DNA from: a virus
Lineage: Duplodnaviria > Caudoviricetes
Length of the DNA stretch: 46,685 bases
Strand: one strand, 5' to 3'
IMG/VR virus record: IMGVR_UViG_3300020045_012035
Location: 1-46,685 of that record
Shown: piece by piece, positions 107 to 38,933 of the stretch
How positions within the stretch are numbered: the first letter of the stretch is position 1
Layout: each line of letters starts with the position of its first letter
Made by a program: the position numbers and the translations under genes
The notes under the pieces: model-generated
Told to the model about the DNA's origin: nothing
The model's input: the letters and a program-made list of their open reading frames with translations, nothing else
Databases searched by the model: none

Positions 107-139
107 GTTGCATACAACATAGATAAGTTATATCTTTCC
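107..139 (+). promoter_or_regulatory. Bacteroidota-type promoter upstream of the ncRNA array
   Basis: GTTG(107-110)-N20-TATCTTTCC(131-139); same spacing as six other copies; resembles the Bacteroidota -33 TTG / -7 TAnnTTTG consensus. Confidence 0.65.
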
Positions 140-177
140 AATGTAATAAAACAACAAGTTCTTTAACATTCTGAAAT

Positions 178-269
178 AAGACGAAGGGAGACAAATATCG
201 ATTCACACTATAGAATGGCGGAAAGCCTTTTAGTACAATACTAAGTGATATAGCTACGATCTTCGTCTT
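178..269 (+). ncRNA. Unassigned structured RNA candidate 1
   Basis: 9-bp closing stem AAGACGAAG(178-186)/CTTCGTCTT(261-269); internal hairpins GGC-GGAAA-GCC and TTAGTA-CAA-TACTAA; no ORF. Confidence 0.4.
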
Positions 270-291
270 TTAAAAATATAAAGATAAAGAT

Positions 292-359
292 AAAGATAAC
301 AAGTAAGGCTATGAAGAAGCATCGAATGAGATTAATTCGAGTACAGCTACTTTATCTTT
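292..359 (+). ncRNA. Unassigned structured RNA candidate 2 (bulged hairpin)
   Basis: Nested pairings AAAGATAA/TTATCTTT, AAGTA/TACTT, GCT/AGC, TCGAAT/ATTCGA. Confidence 0.3.
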
Positions 360-367
360 TAAAATAA

Positions 368-629
368 ACTAACTGCTGTAGGTTAATTGATCAGTTACTG
401 GACCTCGGTTCGAAACCGAGCGCCTCCACAAAGAGTTCCGTGTAGAATTTTTGGTATGACTAGCCGAGATATAAATAGTTATTTTTAACGGGGGCGAATG
501 GCTTTGACAGTAACAATGAAAGATTAAATAGGCATTAGTCCACAATAACTGCAAAAGTTATAAACCTTTTTACTCCGCAAATGAGATTTGCAGCGTAAAA
601 CGAAACTTGGGATCTGCGAAAAAGATCCC
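368..629 (+). ncRNA. ssrA: Circularly permuted (two-piece) tmRNA: acceptor piece ~368-428, intervening ~429-489, coding piece ~490-629
   Basis: T-arm CTCGG-TTCGAAA-CCGAG and 3' acceptor strand CGCCTCC-A (421-428) lie upstream of the 5' strand GGGGGCG (490-496), giving G3.U70; P2 GTTACTG(394-400)/CAGTAAC(508-514); resume context AATAACT-GCA; tag frame 551-598 AKVINLFTPQMRFAA*; 3' hairpin GGGATCT/AGATCCC (609-629). Confidence 0.9.
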
Positions 630-634
630 TAAAT

Positions 635-708
635 GGGGATTTAGCTCATTTGGTAGAGCGCTTAGTCGAAAGGCTGAGAGGTGGTAGGTTCGAATCCTAC
701 AGCCCTCA
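635..708 (+). tRNA. tRNA-like gene with a non-canonical anticodon arm, identity undetermined
   Basis: GGGGATT-TA-GCTC-ATTTGGTA-GAGC-G-CTTAG-TCGAAAGG-CTGAG-AGGTG-GTAGG-TTCGAAT-CCTAC-AGCCCTC-A; good D and T arms; 8-nt anticodon loop lacking U33; A5.C68 mismatch; CCA not encoded. Confidence 0.75.
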
Positions 709-716
709 CTAAGAAC

Positions 717-937
717 CGTGCTGTACTAGTTTACAAGTCCTTAAAACCACTTATCAGAATTGGCGGTGATATGATAAGTAAATTTTGCTTGTCAGTAATC
801 TGAGTAACTGTCACACAACGTTTTATAGTTGCAATATACGCTTTTCGTCTATATAAAGCGTTACGATTACCGTACTCTTAAACAGAAAACGATGTAGCGT
901 AAGCAGAAGGTTTCGTTAAGGTTCTTTAAACGGCACG
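717..937 (+). ncRNA. Unassigned ~220-nt structured RNA candidate 3
   Basis: Nested helices CGTGCTGT/ACGGCACG, CCTTAA/TTAAGG, AACC/GGTT, TTTTGCTT/AAGCAGAA, CGTTTT/AAAACG; side hairpins ACTTATCA/TGATAAGT and ACGCTTT/AAAGCGT. Confidence 0.55.
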
Positions 938-1003
938 AGGATAAATGTGAGTCCTCATCTTTTAAATAATAGCCTACCACAGCAATTAATTTAAAAAAAA
1001 TCC

Positions 1004-1026
1004 AAGGGTGTTTTCACCCTTTTATT
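1004..1026 (+). terminator. Putative intrinsic terminator ending the RNA array
   Basis: AAGGGTG-TTTT-CACCCTT followed by a T-rich tail. Confidence 0.5.
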
Positions 1027-3380: not shown

Positions 3381-4163
3381 ATGAAAGATCAAAGTAAATT
3401 ACAAAAAGGAAACAGAACATTAGTAAGCATCGCTGCAATGTCAGATAACGAAGTGATAGCAGTAAACGGTAAAATTCCTTGGCACTTACCAAATGACTTC
3501 AAACACTTCAAGCAAGTAACCGAAGGACATCATATCATTATGGGAAGAAAAACATTCGAAAGTCTTCCAGGATTATTGCCAAATAGATGTCATATAATTG
3601 TTACAACAAACAAAGATTATAAACCAAACACTACTGGTTCACAACAAAAGAATTGTCCAATCATAGTTGTTCATAACTTACAACAAGCAATAGATATATG
3701 TCCTTTCAACAAAGCATCATACATCATTGGAGGAGGAGAGATCTACAAACAAGCAATGTCAATAGTTGATTATCTAGATTTAACTGTAGTACAGACACAT
3801 ATACATTTTAAATCATCTGACGTAGTAACATACTTTCCTTCAAGCGCTAAACATATAAACGATTTTGATTTTGAAAAAATGTTCGATGAAGTATATTACA
3901 AAGACGATAAACATCAGTACGATTATCGATTTGTAACTCTCAAAAGAAAAGATACAAGCGACAGAGAGATAATTGATTCAGTTGATTGGGATAAAGCAAA
4001 GCCTCTAAACGAATACTTTGATGACGGAGATAAAGATCAAGGAGATCCAAATAATTGGAAGACAACATCTCAAACTACTCTTGAAAGTCATCAACCTATT
4101 GAAGGGAAAAGTTACTATCCTCACAACAAAGTGCAAGATATTAAGTATCCAGATCACGAATAA
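3381..4163 (+). CDS. folA: Dihydrofolate reductase with a C-terminal extension
   Basis: IAAMSDNEVIA..GKIPWHLPNDFKHFK..T.GHHIIMGRKTFESLP.LLPNR and IIGGGEIYKQA motifs. Confidence 0.95.
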   Translation: MKDQSKLQKGNRTLVSIAAMSDNEVIAVNGKIPWHLPNDFKHFKQVTEGHHIIMGRKTFESLPGLLPNRCHIIVTTNKDYKPNTTGSQQKNCPIIVVHNLQQAIDICPFNKASYIIGGGEIYKQAMSIVDYLDLTVVQTHIHFKSSDVVTYFPSSAKHINDFDFEKMFDEVYYKDDKHQYDYRFVTLKRKDTSDREIIDSVDWDKAKPLNEYFDDGDKDQGDPNNWKTTSQTTLESHQPIEGKSYYPHNKVQDIKYPDHE

Positions 4164-6551: not shown

Positions 6552-6596
6552 TTACATACTTCTGTTGTCTAGTATTATAAATTAGCATATCTTTCC
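6552..6596 (+). promoter_or_regulatory. Repeated phage promoter
   Basis: TTACATACTTCT-GTTG-N20-TATCTTTCC. Confidence 0.65.
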
Positions 6597-22827: not shown

Positions 22828-23541
22828 ATGAAAACATTCTTCCAACAAAATTGGAAAGGCATAATGATAATAGGATTAGTAATTGCACTAATCCTTTTAT
22901 TATTTCCTAACCTAACAGCGATTAAAAAACAAGCTGCGCAACAAACTAAAACTGTAATTGATAAAAAGATCGATTTATCTGACGTGCAACAATGGAAAGA
23001 TAAATTCAATACACTTCATTTGAAATTAGAGAAGATTCAAGTAGAAAAAGAAGTTTTACAAGTCTATTCTGATAGCATAGCTAAAGTATTAAAGATTAAA
23101 TCTAAGAATATTCAATCTATTACTCAAATCAAGAGTGGAATATCTATTGATCAAAAACTTGATGTGCAAAATTTAACTTTTACTAACAACTTAGGTAGTC
23201 AAGTAATTAATTACACCTCATTTTCTTATAGTGATAAATGGATTAATATAAAAGGAGATACTGGAAAGACAGATAGTATTCACGTTAAAGGAACTGATAC
23301 TTTAACTAAGATTGATTACACTAAGCGTAAATGGCTTTTCGGTAAAAAACATTACTATAGTGATTTCAGTAATAAAAATCCTCACATTATTATTGAAGGA
23401 TTGAAGCAAGTCGAAGTTAAACCTACTATAAATAGATGGGGTATTGGACCTTCTATTGGAGTGAGTGCACGTTTAGGTGATAAGTTGGAAATTGCTCCCA
23501 TTATTGGAATATCTTTACAATATAATTTTATTACTTTCTAA
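22828..23541 (+). CDS. Membrane-anchored coiled-coil protein with a C-terminal beta-hairpin (spanin-like candidate)
   Basis: N-terminal TM helix, coiled coil, ends RWGIGPSIGV...PIIGISLQYNFITF. Confidence 0.5.
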   Translation: MKTFFQQNWKGIMIIGLVIALILLLFPNLTAIKKQAAQQTKTVIDKKIDLSDVQQWKDKFNTLHLKLEKIQVEKEVLQVYSDSIAKVLKIKSKNIQSITQIKSGISIDQKLDVQNLTFTNNLGSQVINYTSFSYSDKWINIKGDTGKTDSIHVKGTDTLTKIDYTKRKWLFGKKHYYSDFSNKNPHIIIEGLKQVEVKPTINRWGIGPSIGVSARLGDKLEIAPIIGISLQYNFITF

Positions 23542-23542
23542 T

Positions 23543-26206
23543 ATGTCAGATAATTTACAAAAAGGAGGAAAGGGAGCTGCTGTAGGGACTAGAAAAGAGT
23601 TTGGTGGTCGCGAGTATATTAAAACTGCAGACGGTTGGAAGTTTGTAGGAAAGGGTAAAGGAAAGGGAGCTCAAAAACATATAGATGCTCATAAAACTTC
23701 TACAGACGATAAGCAACCTAAATCTACACACTCTCCGGAAGAATTATCTACCCATGCCTCTAATACCTCAACAGAAGCTCTTACTGCAGTGGCTCATGAT
23801 AAAACTAAGCCAAAAGAACTTCAACAAGCTGCTCAACAAGAGTTAAGTCATAGAGATAAGGGTAGTAAAGAAATTGAACCTGAAAAAACTGAAAAGAAAG
23901 AAGAGCCTAAGAAGGAGGAAAAGAAGGAAGAAAAACCTAAACCTGCTGAAAAGAAAGAAGATAAAAAAGATGCTCACGAAAAGAGAGGATTTGATGAGTC
24001 TAAAGGAGATGAAGATGTGACTGGTAAGGGTGAGAAAATTCCAGCAGATTATGGTTTACCTAATGAAGAAAGCGCTGTAGAAGGAAAGATCTTAGCTCAA
24101 AAAGATGGAGCTGATAAATTGAGTGTTAAAGACGAAGGATTTAGTTTAGATCAACAAGAAGCTTTAACATCTGAAAGCGATAGCAATGAAGAAGATGATA
24201 TTAATCATAAATTTGAAGCGTTTGGTCGCTTCGCTGCTGGTGTAATTAAAGGACGTATGAAATCTTTAATAGCCTACGGCAGCGGAGGTGTGGGCAAAAC
24301 TTACACTGTAACCACGGAGTTAGAGAAGGCTGGAAAGAAAATATTTGATCCTGAAATTCACGATCCAGGTGAAAGTGGTTATGATTATGTAAAAATTACA
24401 GGGAAAGCTCTATCTTTAGATGCTGATATTATTACTCCTAATGGTATAGTAAAGAATAAAGATTTATCTGTAGGGATGGAAGTTAGTACTTTCGATGGTT
24501 CGTCTGCTAAGATAAATCAGATATTTGACCAAGAAGATGAGCAATTGTATGAGGTATTATTTAATGATGGCTCATCTGTTGAATGTACACTTAATCATTT
24601 ATGGCAAGTAAGGGATCGTATTTCTAGAAATAATAAAGTAGTAGATTTAAAATATATTTTAAATAAAAATGTAGTAAAGCGTTATCCTAATTATAACTTA
24701 TTTCGCTTTGCAATTCCATTAACAGCGCCTGTAGAATATAATAATCCCTCTATCGTTGAAATACATCCTTATTTATTAGGTTATTTAATAGGAGATGGTA
24801 ATATATGCGAAAGTGCAGGATCTATGAATATTGCAATAGGAGTAGAAGATCAAGAGTATGTTTTAAATAAAATCTCTTCATTATTACCGCTAAATCATAA
24901 ATTAGTACCAATATCGACTACAGAGAACTGGGATAAAATAAGCTTTAGAATACAAGGAGATAAAAATTTAAATATTAATTTGATTCGTAGAGCTATTATT
25001 TCATTAGATTTACAAAAAACTTGTTATAATAAATCTATTCCTGAGATATGTTTTACTATGTGTGTAGAAGATCGAATACATTTACTACAAGGATTATTTG
25101 ATTCAGACGGTACAGTAGAAAAGACAGGTAGTGCTCAGTTTTGCTCAGTTAGTAAACAATTAGCTATTGATGTGCGCAAATTAGCAAAATCTTTAGGAGC
25201 GTGGAGTTCTTTTAAAGAGAGAGTGGTACCTAGTAGTAATACGCTGAGATATGAAGTAGTAGTAAATCTACCTAAAACTATAAAATGCTGTTCTTTACCA
25301 CGTAAAGCTATACGCTTAGATAATAGAAGTAAAGATATTCCGGAATTAACAATAGTAGCAGTTAACCTTACTCGTATAGCTCCTAGTAGATGTATATCTA
25401 TAGATAGCGACGATCATTTATACTTAACGAATGATTTTATTGTCACACATAATTGTACTGCTGCAGCTGTATATCAAACTATGTATGAGCATAATGGTAA
25501 AATACTTCTCTTTGACGACTGCGATAGCGTACTTCAAGATGAAAATGCAATCAATCTATTCAAAGGAGCTCTTGATACATCAGGAGATGGAAGTATTAAC
25601 TGGGGAAGTGCTAAAAAACTAAAAGACAGCAACGGAGAGGAGATGCCTGGTAAATTTGCATTTAACGGAAGCGCAATGTTCGTTTCTAATCTTGATATTG
25701 GAAAAGATAAAAACGGAAAACAGTCAAATCCTCAATTACAACCAATTGTTTCTCGTGGATACGGTATTAATTTAACGATGGATAAAAAGAAAACAATGGA
25801 TCGCATTACTCATATTGCTACAAGTAAAGATGGCAAATTGACGAATCTTAAATTTCCAGGAACGCCAGATTATACTCACGAAGACATGAAAGCTGTATTA
25901 GAGTATATGGGTAAGAATAAAGATAAAGCGTCAGATTTAAATGTAAGAACAGTAGGAACTTTGCTTGCAATCAAAAAAGATGCAGATGAAGCAGGAGTGA
26001 ATTGGCAAGATGATGCAAAGTACGTTTATCTAAGAAAATCAAATACTCCTGATATCTATAATGGAGGATTATTCAACGCTAGAAAAGACGTTATACAAAA
26101 GTCTTTAGGAATTGATGAGCGAACTATTGGAGATAAGAAAATTGATTGGTGTACATTAAAGAAAGCATCTTTAAGAGGAAATGTAAAAAGTCTCGAATAC
26201 AGATAA
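23543..26206 (+). CDS. Putative head-cargo AAA+ ATPase with the shared N-terminal module and an intein
   Basis: Start reassigned to ATG 23543 (MSDNLQKGG); Walker A GSGGVGKT, Walker B LLFDDCD; K/E-rich linker. Confidence 0.8.
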   Translation: MSDNLQKGGKGAAVGTRKEFGGREYIKTADGWKFVGKGKGKGAQKHIDAHKTSTDDKQPKSTHSPEELSTHASNTSTEALTAVAHDKTKPKELQQAAQQELSHRDKGSKEIEPEKTEKKEEPKKEEKKEEKPKPAEKKEDKKDAHEKRGFDESKGDEDVTGKGEKIPADYGLPNEESAVEGKILAQKDGADKLSVKDEGFSLDQQEALTSESDSNEEDDINHKFEAFGRFAAGVIKGRMKSLIAYGSGGVGKTYTVTTELEKAGKKIFDPEIHDPGESGYDYVKITGKALSLDADIITPNGIVKNKDLSVGMEVSTFDGSSAKINQIFDQEDEQLYEVLFNDGSSVECTLNHLWQVRDRISRNNKVVDLKYILNKNVVKRYPNYNLFRFAIPLTAPVEYNNPSIVEIHPYLLGYLIGDGNICESAGSMNIAIGVEDQEYVLNKISSLLPLNHKLVPISTTENWDKISFRIQGDKNLNINLIRRAIISLDLQKTCYNKSIPEICFTMCVEDRIHLLQGLFDSDGTVEKTGSAQFCSVSKQLAIDVRKLAKSLGAWSSFKERVVPSSNTLRYEVVVNLPKTIKCCSLPRKAIRLDNRSKDIPELTIVAVNLTRIAPSRCISIDSDDHLYLTNDFIVTHNCTAAAVYQTMYEHNGKILLFDDCDSVLQDENAINLFKGALDTSGDGSINWGSAKKLKDSNGEEMPGKFAFNGSAMFVSNLDIGKDKNGKQSNPQLQPIVSRGYGINLTMDKKKTMDRITHIATSKDGKLTNLKFPGTPDYTHEDMKAVLEYMGKNKDKASDLNVRTVGTLLAIKKDADEAGVNWQDDAKYVYLRKSNTPDIYNGGLFNARKDVIQKSLGIDERTIGDKKIDWCTLKKASLRGNVKSLEYR
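24407..25453 (+). mobile_element. Class 3 intein with a LAGLIDADG homing endonuclease (349 aa)
   Basis: TGK|ALSLDADIITPNG ... IVTHN|C; block B CTLNHLW (W), block F SRCISI (C), block G THN (T) give the WCT signature; LLGYLIGDG and LQGLFDSDG. Confidence 0.92.
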
Positions 26207-35148: not shown

Positions 35149-35781
35149 ATGGAATTATTTAAAAAAGCTCTAGATACAATTTCGCAATTACTTCATCTTA
35201 AAAAAGATAAAGTACATTACGCTGATTGCATTATAAGAAATGAGAAAGGACAAATCTTATTGCTTCAAAGAAGTACTCAAGATGATTTTGAGCCTGGTAA
35301 GTGGTGTTTGCCTGGAGGAAAAATAGAGAAAGGAGAAGTTCCTGAATACGCAGCTGCTAGAGAATTGATTGAAGAAACACATCTCCAAACTCCTCTATCA
35401 TTTATTCAAGCAGTAGATAGAGACGATAGCATCTCTTTGTATTATGAGGGGTATGTAAAGTCTAGCGATAATATCATTCTTGATAACGAGGAGCATTATC
35501 AACTACAATGGGTTGATGTAGAAGAGATCGCTAAATTCGATCTACTATTAGATTTAAAAGACACATTAATGAATAAGATCGGATTACCAATCTATTCAAC
35601 AAAATTAATGCAGTTAGATATAGAAGATGTAACCGATTTGTTCAAAAGAAATGATTTGGTTATGAAAAGCTTCGATGCTGGACAGATGAGTACTCAAGAT
35701 TACTTCTACTGTAAAGATATAATCAAATCGCATCTAGATGAAATAGTTAAAGCTGCACAAGAACAAGGATTAATAAACTAA
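35149..35781 (+). CDS. Nudix hydrolase
   Basis: WCLPGGKIEKGEVPEYAAARELIEET Nudix box. Confidence 0.9.
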   Translation: MELFKKALDTISQLLHLKKDKVHYADCIIRNEKGQILLLQRSTQDDFEPGKWCLPGGKIEKGEVPEYAAARELIEETHLQTPLSFIQAVDRDDSISLYYEGYVKSSDNIILDNEEHYQLQWVDVEEIAKFDLLLDLKDTLMNKIGLPIYSTKLMQLDIEDVTDLFKRNDLVMKSFDAGQMSTQDYFYCKDIIKSHLDEIVKAAQEQGLIN

Positions 35782-37460: not shown

Positions 37461-38933
37461 ATGACTTCAATCAATGATTATGCAGGAGAAGGATTCGTAG
37501 GTGGCCAAAGCGATGGTCAACTAGAACTTCAAAAAGCAATGTCTACTGGTCAAATTACCGGTAGAGACACAACAGGACAACCTTTAACTCAAGAACCATT
37601 AAAAGCTGAATCTTTAGAGAAAACTTTAAAATTACTTGAGTATAGAACGTCAGATATCAAATTAATGAATTTGATGCCAAAATTAACAGCTTACAACACT
37701 GTTGAGGAGTTCTTACAACTTTCTTCCTATGGTGCGCAAAGAGGAGGTTTCTACGATGAAGGAGAACTTTCTGACGTAGAAGATTCTACTTATATCAGAC
37801 GTGCAGAGCTTGTGAAATATATGCAAGTAACTGGTGAAGTTACTATTCAAGCTCAAATGGTACGCTCTTATGTAGATGCAATGCGTCAAGAGGTTGAGAA
37901 CAAAATGATGTGGATTTTAAGATTAGCGAACAAGTCATTGACTCATGCTGACTCTGAAGTAATTCCTCAACAATTCAATTCTATCTACAAACAACACGCA
38001 TCTGTTGGTGTAACTCAAGATTACTTATATCCAACATTCGAAGCTTATTACAGCTCAGAAGTAGTTATTGATTTAAGAGGTCAATCTCTTAAACAAGGCG
38101 ATTTAGAAGATGCTGCAGTTACTGTAGATGCTAATTATGGTAATGTTTCTCATTTATGTGCTCCTACAACTGTAATCTCTGCCTTAGCTAAAGATTATTA
38201 CGAAGTGCAAAGAATTATTCAAAATGGCACTTATAATGGAAATGTTAATAGTGTTCCTAAAGTGATCTCAACTACTCTTGGAGATGTTCAGCTAGTATCT
38301 GATAAGTTCATGAAAGTAGATCCGCCAAGAATGATCAATACTCCAGCTTCTTCTACGAAATCTCCAGGTGCTCCTACTGTATCTGCAGTAGCGTTAGTAG
38401 CAGATGCTAACAGTAAATATAAGACTGGTGAATTTGGAAACGTATTTTATGCAGTAACTGCTGTAAACAGATATGGAGAATCTAATTTAACACCGTTTGC
38501 AACAGCAGTAACATTAGCAGCTAATCAAGCGGTTAATATCACCTTAGCTCCAGGTGCTGGCTCAATTGTAGCATCAGGATATGTTATTTACAGAACTAAA
38601 GTAACGACAGCAGGAACACCTACTGATTTGGAATTTTTCCCAATCTTCGCAGTGTCGGAATCTGCAAGAGCTAATGGATTTAATGGAGGTGCTGCAGGTA
38701 TTGTAAGAGATAGAGGATATTTCTTACCTGATACAGAACAAGCCTTTGTTACTGATCTAGTTGATGAAGTTCTTTCATTCAAACAATTGGCGCCTATTTC
38801 TAAATTAGATTTAGCTGTTCAATCTATGAGTAGAAGATTTATCTGCTTCCTTTTCGGAACTCCTCAGCTTTATGCTCCGAAAAAAGTGATAAGATTCATT
38901 AATGCAGGAAAAAAATATACTCCAGTAGTATAA
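37461..38933 (+). CDS. Major capsid protein
   Basis: LQK|AMSTG...PLKAESLEKTLK, AYNTVEEF, FKQLAPISKLDLA, QLYAPKK resemble SPO1/Twort-type capsid proteins. Confidence 0.92.
   Translation: MTSINDYAGEGFVGGQSDGQLELQKAMSTGQITGRDTTGQPLTQEPLKAESLEKTLKLLEYRTSDIKLMNLMPKLTAYNTVEEFLQLSSYGAQRGGFYDEGELSDVEDSTYIRRAELVKYMQVTGEVTIQAQMVRSYVDAMRQEVENKMMWILRLANKSLTHADSEVIPQQFNSIYKQHASVGVTQDYLYPTFEAYYSSEVVIDLRGQSLKQGDLEDAAVTVDANYGNVSHLCAPTTVISALAKDYYEVQRIIQNGTYNGNVNSVPKVISTTLGDVQLVSDKFMKVDPPRMINTPASSTKSPGAPTVSAVALVADANSKYKTGEFGNVFYAVTAVNRYGESNLTPFATAVTLAANQAVNITLAPGAGSIVASGYVIYRTKVTTAGTPTDLEFFPIFAVSESARANGFNGGAAGIVRDRGYFLPDTEQAFVTDLVDEVLSFKQLAPISKLDLAVQSMSRRFICFLFGTPQLYAPKKVIRFINAGKKYTPVV

Follow-up and report, generated by a model that had tools for sequence, protein, structure and literature searches.

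What does the gene-free span 97-1121 of IMG/VR virus record IMGVR_UViG_3300020045_012035 encode? The window, that is, the whole stretch of DNA analysed (positions 1 to 46,685), is a linear virus record of 46.7 kb with 33% G+C, and an earlier sequence-only reading had proposed at 107-1026 an operon of five separately folding RNAs built around translation-rescue RNAs. We find that 97-1121 is a real non-coding RNA cluster and that it contains, at 867-956, a structured motif which covariation marks as a real, new RNA family, unmatched in Rfam. The layout is of a known kind, that of phage tRNA and transfer-messenger RNA (tmRNA) clusters, in which the intervals between annotated genes have mostly been overlooked; one such gap here holds the motif, and the motif is the new RNA family. 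Our overall reading, which we consider probable, is a cluster of RNA genes behind a promoter-like site and a boxA, transcribed as one antiterminated precursor that is cut by host tRNA-processing enzymes and includes a genuine motif.

The upstream reading frame ends at 96 and the following gene begins at 1122. The earlier claim of about 900 nucleotides (nt) without a credible open reading frame holds across this interval: the 13 frames of at least 20 amino acids found there are 20-61 amino acids long and overlap the RNA genes, and the sole frame of at least 60 amino acids starts with TTG and runs antisense to the tmRNA. The structural module of the window is of the contractile-tail type (terminase, portal, capsid, sheath). 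The nearest isolate is Chryseobacterium phage MA9V-3 (capsid 81% identical), followed by the Bacteroides DAC phages (39%), which makes a Flavobacteriales bacterium the likely host.

The motif has the following anatomy:

867..956, + strand: structured RNA motif of 90 nt; P1 870-873/930-933 plus 867/935; P2 874-881/916-922; bulge TCTTTAA at 923-929; P3 937-941/952-956 with loop TAAATGTGAG; pseudoknot pair C934-G951

MA9V-3, G003 and G004/G005, found through capsid relatedness, share a stretch with window positions 891-966. A pattern built from them returned eight viral loci, six of them members, and added L190, L193 and L195, the last being the 43-kb Croceibacter phage P2559Y, whose relative G063 has no sheath match. 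The family comprises seven distinct sequences in eight records of Bacteroidota phages, all of them within non-coding clusters, and includes the cultured phages MA9V-3 and P2559Y, in which it is directly testable. Alignment A2 gives the layout x-TAC-nnn-AC, P2, a variable insert, GT-TCTTTAA-nnn-G, three bases and a 5-bp hairpin with loop TAAATGTRAS, and sets the 5' end at 867, not at 717. Ten of the 16 nested pairs change on both sides, with 99% of the cells paired; none of 500 shuffles scored as high, and slid controls reached 24-45%. With the extra pairs included, 12 of 24 proposed pairs covary on both sides, the additions being 867-935 (three pair types) and 934-951, a pseudoknot pair between the linker and the hairpin loop. 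Among 1275 variable column pairs, ten were perfectly Watson-Crick with two-sided change, nine of them in the model and one, columns 13-60, spurious. Pairings of UUUA with UAAA and of UA with UR are possible and show no two-sided change. The window copy retains every proposed pair, and a descriptor freed of the GTTCTTTAA requirement retrieved exactly the seven members, and nothing else, from 1.75 Mb of partly redundant sequence.

An Rfam scan had been suggested as a check on the earlier proposal. It recovered the tmRNA (RF04321) and left the motif and the unit at 178-269 unmatched; for 867-956, Rfam 15 gave no match on its own strand at an E value of up to 10 or at 5, and none for four homolog loci at E 1. 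A match to RsaD on the opposite strand (15.7 versus 50) was set aside as chance, as were all 27 matches to a first motif pattern. A scan of genomes gave three matches and no member (best 25.3 bits), a relaxed pattern gave 25 matches, namely the six known members and 19 scoring at most 22.8 bits, and motif model R1 matched six of 67 records, and these six were known before. A search of 151 genomes of the G065 family, in which 26 candidates were scored per genome with no positive control, did not find the motif, and no convincing match occurred in DAC19, SJC03 (23 bits), BF486P2, FpV4 or FPSV-F12. No description of the motif was found in the literature searched, although large motif catalogues in supplements could still hold it. 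The MA9V-3 paper, in its available text, lists a tmRNA and one tRNA, and the terms 'non-coding' and 'ncRNA' are absent from that text (PMC13120357).

We then considered the signals that bound the cluster:

108..138, + strand: promoter of the Bacteroidota sigma-A type (TTG, 20 nt, TATCTTTC), judged by recurrence and resemblance to TAnnTTTG
156..168, + strand: boxA of the rRNA-operon type, AAGTTCTTTAACAT, judged by its match to the host rrn boxA
1004..1021, + strand: terminator-like hairpin at the cluster end, possibly bidirectional (z -3.3)

The promoter proposed earlier as one bound of the cluster is recovered as the promoter-like TTGC...TATCTTTC at 108-138. The element occurs again at 6565 and 9608 in the window and also heads the RNA clusters of the relatives G003 and G004; its pattern was counted three times on the + strand against 0.05 expected, the pattern having itself been derived from these sites. 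Flavobacterial sigma-A promoters, as described in the available part of one study, carry a TAnnTTTG box at -12 to -5 (PMC9723704), which predicts a transcription start near 143. Shortly 3' of the promoter lies the boxA, overlooked by the sequence-only reading; AAGTTCTTTAACAT occurs at one site in the whole window, against 0.0 expected from 100 shuffles. It resembles AAGTTCATT(G/A)ACAT-type sequences of host rrn leaders and spacers, which we take to be boxA, with close matches in the 16S leaders of three of four host genomes and in the spacers at four of five loci, the fifth being truncated by a contig end. These host sites were located from the rRNA gene ends; a direct pattern search gave seven matches, none near rRNA. 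BoxA-like sites are also present in the RNA clusters of L190, L044, L045, G003 and G004. At its other end the cluster does have the stable hairpin that had been taken as its terminator-like bound, but the terminator scan passed it on the - strand only; termination on the + strand is plausible. A separate 10-bp hairpin (GAGTAGTAGG/CCTACTACTC; z about -4 in sliding windows) lies at 1060-1100, between the cluster and the first downstream gene.

The arrangement resembles the leader of a bacterial rrn operon in its promoter, its near-identical host-type boxA and a long untranslated precursor punctuated by tRNA-like elements; it differs in having no rRNA, and its products would be phage small RNAs. 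Nus factors bind boxA in E. coli. That they would also bind the Bacteroidota boxA is inferred from conservation, and the available part of one study lends support at the level of protein interfaces only (PMC13753749).

What, then, might the motif do? Tentatively, and with clear reservations, we read it as a trans-acting RNA: 867-956 would fold as a compact pseudoknotted RNA, most likely released in stable form and binding a host protein, NusB/S10 being the first candidate partner because of the boxA core GUUCUUUAA. It is possible, if rather doubtful, that the motif instead acts in cis as a nut-like element, its boxA core and fixed-spacing hairpin reloading antitermination factors for read-through of the remaining cluster and the 1004-1021 hairpin. 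A lambda nut site consists of boxA plus boxB, and in the motif, likewise, a hairpin whose loop is conserved stands at a fixed distance 3' of a boxA-like core: GTTCTTTAA is the same 9-mer as in the leader boxA, the spacer from core to loop is 11 nt in all seven sequences, and the motif always lies within long untranslated clusters. The window copy is about 50 nt 5' of the terminator-like hairpin, and no TTG-N19-21-TAnnTTT(G/C) site occurs from the motif to the gene at 1122. Unlike in a nut site, however, the core lies between two covarying helices, P1 and P2, and is tied to the loop by a tertiary pair; it also lacks the CATATTG tail of the host boxA. In G004 a canonical boxA about 15 nt 3' of the motif would make such an element redundant. 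No N-like protein was identified, no search having been aimed at one, and no cognate N protein is known for the motif.

An unlikely alternative is that the precursor is cut by the motif itself, as a small self-cleaving ribozyme belonging to a class so far undescribed. Precedent comes from phage ribozymes that trim tRNA trailers, the theta ribozymes, which resemble the hepatitis delta virus (HDV) ribozyme and, in the available account, are small pseudoknotted RNAs adjoining tRNA genes in Bacteroidota phages (PMC10879173). Like them the motif is small and pseudoknotted; its fold is compact, its loop and bulge residues do not vary, and it lies downstream of a tRNA-like gene in four of the six loci compared, in G004 at a distance of 6 nt. 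However, in the other three loci it starts 160, 107 and 54 nt from the tRNA-like 3' end, so that none of the four 5' ends lies within the 5 nt or less of a tRNA 3' end that marks theta ribozymes; G003 and L190 have no tRNA-like gene directly upstream of the motif, and adjacency to a tRNA end is thus confined to one of the six loci. The motif also matches no Rfam ribozyme model, and the theta fold presumably differs from it. That the motif has some role other than these three seems similarly unlikely.

The best-defined of the cluster's other RNAs is a tmRNA in two pieces:

368..431, + strand: tmRNA acceptor piece; P2 strand; T arm 404-420; acceptor 3' strand 421-427; A73 at 428; CAA, CCA not encoded
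432..489, + strand: tmRNA intervening segment, predicted to be excised; acceptor strands 60 nt apart
490..630, + strand: tmRNA coding piece; GGGGGCG acceptor strand (G3·U70), P2 strand, tag frame 551-598 (AKVINLFTPQMRFAA, then stop), 3' hairpin 609-629

That this tmRNA is permuted, as had been claimed, is confirmed by a match to RF04321, the permuted tmRNA model of Nawrocki, Petrov and Williams 2025 (PMC11915505), at 63 bits against a cut-off of 47 over model positions 1-213; the minimum-energy fold of 360-634 likewise has the permuted form, its P2 helix extending from 368 to about 540 (z -3.8). The T arm and the acceptor 3' strand come before the acceptor 5' strand with the intervening segment between them, and the gene has the G3·U70 alanine identity, a resume motif and a tag ending in hydrophobic-AA, which ARAGORN reads as AKVINLFTPQMRFAA. 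In gene order (T arm-CCA site, intervening segment, acceptor 5' strand, tag frame), in G3·U70 and in its AA-ended tag it is like the RF04321 genes and that of phage Melnitz, as far as the available texts describe them (PMC11915505, PMC9004378). CCA is unencoded, as in two of the three host tmRNAs seen, and little space is left for pseudoknot 1. None of the alpha, beta and cyano permuted models (RF01849, RF01850, RF01851) reached its gathering threshold; the score with the beta model was 39.5, its cut-off being 84, and the alpha and cyano models were not among the matches listed. SmpB was absent among the 63 window proteins scanned, the contig being partial.

The available portions of the literature name three main permuted lineages, of alphaproteobacteria, betaproteobacteria and cyanobacteria (PMC11915505, PMC9004378). 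A phage two-piece tmRNA has already been published, in Melnitz (PMC9004378), and genes such as the present one may already be in the database of PMC11915505 (taxonomic Table S2). The closest tmRNA gene is that of L012 (tag AKVINLFNQPMRLAA). This phage is complete at 68 kb and shows no match to the window in capsid or sheath, which suggests horizontal exchange. Related phages carry either form, MA9V-3 the permuted one and G003, G004 and L045 the one-piece one, and all three Bacteroidota host genomes checked have a one-piece tmRNA. When the coding piece was compared with 20 other tmRNAs (L209 unparsed; alpha, beta and cyano sequences left out; no tree), z was 21 with L012, 5.0 with the one-piece L045, 3.1 with MA9V-3 and at most 1.8 with the rest. 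The occurrence of both forms within a clade, together with a coding piece nearest, L012 apart, to the one-piece L045, hints that permutation in phages was separate from the three named lineages, and the cluster thus points to a further, phage-borne origin of two-piece tmRNA.

Further permuted tmRNA lineages with Bacteroidota-like tags, e.g. GEQVELAMAA, are found in viral and metagenome contigs (L001, L002, L006, L007, L020, L027-L043, L009), none of them close to the window coding piece. L013 carries at 1533-1700 a permuted tmRNA whose 169-nt structured intervening segment contains a boxA-like site, GTTCTTTAA. In L039, a marine metagenome contig, an intact tRNA-Ala(UGC) lies within the intervening segment (oriented 1334-1408), nine close relatives being without it; the available text of PMC11915505 describes one sequence with a tRNA in this position. 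A metagenome scan gave 17 loci, ten permuted tmRNAs of another lineage and seven chance matches, with other cluster units at none of them, and blastn of 100-1050 against 50,697 phage records returned generic tRNA matches only.

Immediately 3' of the tmRNA lies the tRNA-like gene, also named by the sequence-only reading:

635..708, + strand: tRNA-like gene; D and T arms intact; anticodon arm a 7-bp stem with a GAAA tetraloop; A5·C68 mismatch; CCA not encoded

It scores 44.5 bits, low for a tRNA. The elbow is that of a decoding tRNA, with G18-G19 in the D arm and TTCGA in the T arm; the 7-bp stem and GAAA loop stand in place of a 5-bp anticodon stem, a 7-nt loop and U33, and the acceptor falls short of full 7-bp pairing, with the A5·C68 mismatch and two G·U pairs. 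None of ten such genes, the window gene and nine from related clusters, folds a 7-nt anticodon loop, which the control tRNA-Asn does; the ten were selected for being aberrant, and these phages have normal tRNAs as well. In the nine related genes, loops of 3-6 nt or long inserts replace the anticodon loop. The L013 gene also has GAAA and sits directly 5' of the L013 permuted tmRNA, and the odd acceptor pairs A5·C68 and U6·G67 are common to L044/L045. Conservation of the elbow while the anticodon arm varies freely favours a non-decoding mimic, which would fit better than a pseudogene or a frameshift suppressor. In being a tRNA-shaped phage RNA unable to decode, it resembles the YrlA tRNA mimics (RF02553) and the tmRNA without a coding sequence of phage DS6A; it differs from both in its normal tRNA strand order, its open acceptor end and its lack of G3·U70, and it matched neither family. 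The DS6A gene is noted in the available part of PMC11915505. Mimics that keep the elbow and drop the anticodon offer a lead on how phages handle tRNA-targeting defences. Another such gene, on the - strand of L197 at 1650-1761 (G003), has a D-arm expansion of about 40 nt and a 6-nt loop at the anticodon position, upstream of a one-piece tmRNA with a 25-residue tag.

The promoter, the rRNA-type boxA and the RNase P-type 5' ends G490 and G635 fit a single precursor cut at its tRNA-like ends. The best sequence argument comes from the tmRNA 3' hairpin, whose GCG-led loop is common to four permuted genes: a T-rich tail follows it in all three permuted relatives examined (L012, L013, MA9V-3), and in the window there is none and the tRNA-like gene begins 5 nt later, which suggests read-through and an RNase P cut at 635. 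The promoter-like site, the boxA match, the anatomy of the tmRNA and of the tRNA-like gene and the motif covariation are seen directly, and from them we infer cotranscription and processing. Host sigma-A RNA polymerase would initiate near 143 and extend the precursor to about 1025, while boxA would draw NusB/S10 and shield about 900 untranslated bases against Rho. RNase P would cleave before G490 and G635, and 3' trimming and CCA addition would mature the ends near 428 and 708. The two-piece tmRNA, charged with alanine and acting with host SmpB, would rescue stalled ribosomes and add AA-ended peptide tags for proteolysis. The tRNA-like RNA, unable to decode, would act as a processing signal, cleavage at its 5' end at the same time defining the 3' limit of the tmRNA coding piece; it might also be a decoy for proteins that bind tRNA. 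The earlier idea that the RNA set protects or redirects translation is thus retained for the tmRNA only, the tRNA-like gene having no anticodon loop and the motif no evident link to translation.

The remaining parts of the cluster are less well defined:

178..269, + strand: multibranched stem-loop with a 10-bp closing helix, candidate RNA (z -3.3 to -3.45)
292..359, + strand: weak stem-loop, background-like (z -1.4)
717..747, + strand: second, imperfect copy of the motif 5' half (TGC-TGT-AC...CCTTAAAAC); can pair with 908-937, competing with the conserved fold

The first of these, one of the five proposed units, does fold better than shuffles (z -3.45 on the + strand, -2.28 on the - strand), and a z of -3.3 is reached by nine of 304 background windows of 92 nt, which had not been trimmed to helix ends; it had no Rfam match and no nhmmer match in 206 loci. 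The unit at 292-359 is unsupported: 58 of 304 background 68-nt windows equal or exceed it, and it has no homolog in the 206 loci. Nor did 712-866 have homologs there. In this search nhmmer was weak, detecting true motif homologs only at E 0.24-1, so that missing homologs are soft evidence. Three of the five units therefore stand, the tmRNA, the tRNA-like gene and the last one, redrawn from 717-937 to 867-956: 717-937 is indeed a minimum-energy fold (z -2.1), but the evolutionarily conserved part is 867-956, whose pairs exclude the closing helix first proposed. The copy at 717-747 is in the same register as the motif 5' half, was seen in the window phage only; it could act as a switch, be left over from a duplication or mean that the window motif copy misfolds. 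A 13-nt match between 726-738 and the G003 tmRNA was judged likely chance.

Several points weigh against our reading. The motif family is small, with seven sequences in about five lineages, and its invariance is partly by construction, L190, L193 and L195 having been retrieved by a pattern that fixed the conserved letters. Taken by itself, the motif does not exceed shuffles in stability (z -0.5), and a nearest-neighbour model favours the 717-937 fold (-60.9 kcal/mol) over the conserved one (-47.1 kcal/mol) by about 14 kcal/mol, energies that exclude pseudoknots and tertiary contacts. The spurious two-state column pair 13-60 arises alongside 934-951, so that this pseudoknot pair, likely but not certain and with two states only, is a weak point. 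The boxA core in the motif (GUUCUUUAA) is in part base-paired and, unlike true boxAs, shows no variation, which disfavours simple NusB binding. The + strand T-tract 3' of 1021 failed the terminator scan. Finally, the earlier proposal was to fall if segments other than the tmRNA and tRNA showed no covariation; 867-956 covaries strongly, but 178-269 and 292-359 have no comparative support.

It is improbable, on this evidence, that only the tmRNA is functional, with the tRNA-like gene a decaying pseudogene and the remainder spacer and processing stems. The A5·C68 mismatch, U15/G48, the missing CCA and the low score of the tRNA-like gene would agree with decay, 178-269, 292-359 and 712-866 are without homologs, and the competing 5' copy may misfold the window motif. 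Yet relatives keep the D and T arms while the anticodon arm is free, the odd acceptor pairs recur in L044/L045, and the motif covaries with every proposed pair kept in the window copy. That 635-708 is a four-base (GAAA) frameshift-suppressor tRNA redirecting translation is very improbable: ARAGORN gives an 8-nt loop with 'gaaa', and L013 likewise has GAAA, but there is no U33, the loop closes into a GNRA tetraloop in both the window and L013, relatives have either loops of 3-6 nt that differ in sequence or long inserts, and no acceptor identity, for alanine, phenylalanine or another amino acid, was clearly established. Beyond the probable operon, it is conceivable, though we rather doubt it, that the motif founds a new class of small phage RNAs with several pseudoknots, whether as a new self-cleaving ribozyme or as a boxA mimic that captures host NusB/S10, redirecting rRNA antitermination factors to the phage. 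Such RNAs would travel among unrelated Bacteroidota phages as part of clusters built like rRNA operons, in the company of anticodon-less mimics and a tmRNA permuted independently, and the duplicated 5' half would make the window copy switchable.

Comparable clusters occur in other phages. The MA9V-3 genome (L124) carries at 37654-38559, on the - strand and following an HU gene, an unannotated 900-nt RNA cluster that contains the motif, an element of about 300 nt ending in a T arm and two or three tRNA-like genes whose arms are expanded, one of them carrying a tRNA-Gln annotation. In P2559Y (L195), a 720-nt non-coding gap at 1677-2396, with ssDNA-binding protein and DNA polymerase genes on either side, holds the motif as well as a tRNA-like gene and a hairpin of 80 nt (z -3.9), with about 350 further bases left unexplained. 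A cluster of about 1 kb in L190 (1770-2750) has a perfect host boxA at its start and several long-stem units, and a 38-nt stretch within it (about 2648-2685) recurs between genes in 29 Flavobacterium phage records, e.g. FpV4. The non-coding clusters of L045 (13260-14900) and L044 (11410-12700), 1.3-1.7 kb long, have boxA and five or more aberrant tRNA-like genes; that of L045 includes a one-piece tmRNA, and both share a conserved segment of 180-200 nt (about 14050-14240 in L045) with no Rfam match.

Elsewhere in the window, a search for relatives of the gene at 1856 yielded none. A 260-amino-acid dihydrofolate reductase, exceeding the Pfam domain length, is encoded at 3381-4163, and a NUDIX hydrolase gene at 35149-35781 has an endolysin on one side and a prohead protease on the other. 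Among the head genes, a 909-amino-acid reading frame at 23477-26206 has a LAGLIDADG/Hom_end domain and resembles intein-bearing terminases; its product is likely an intein-containing protein.

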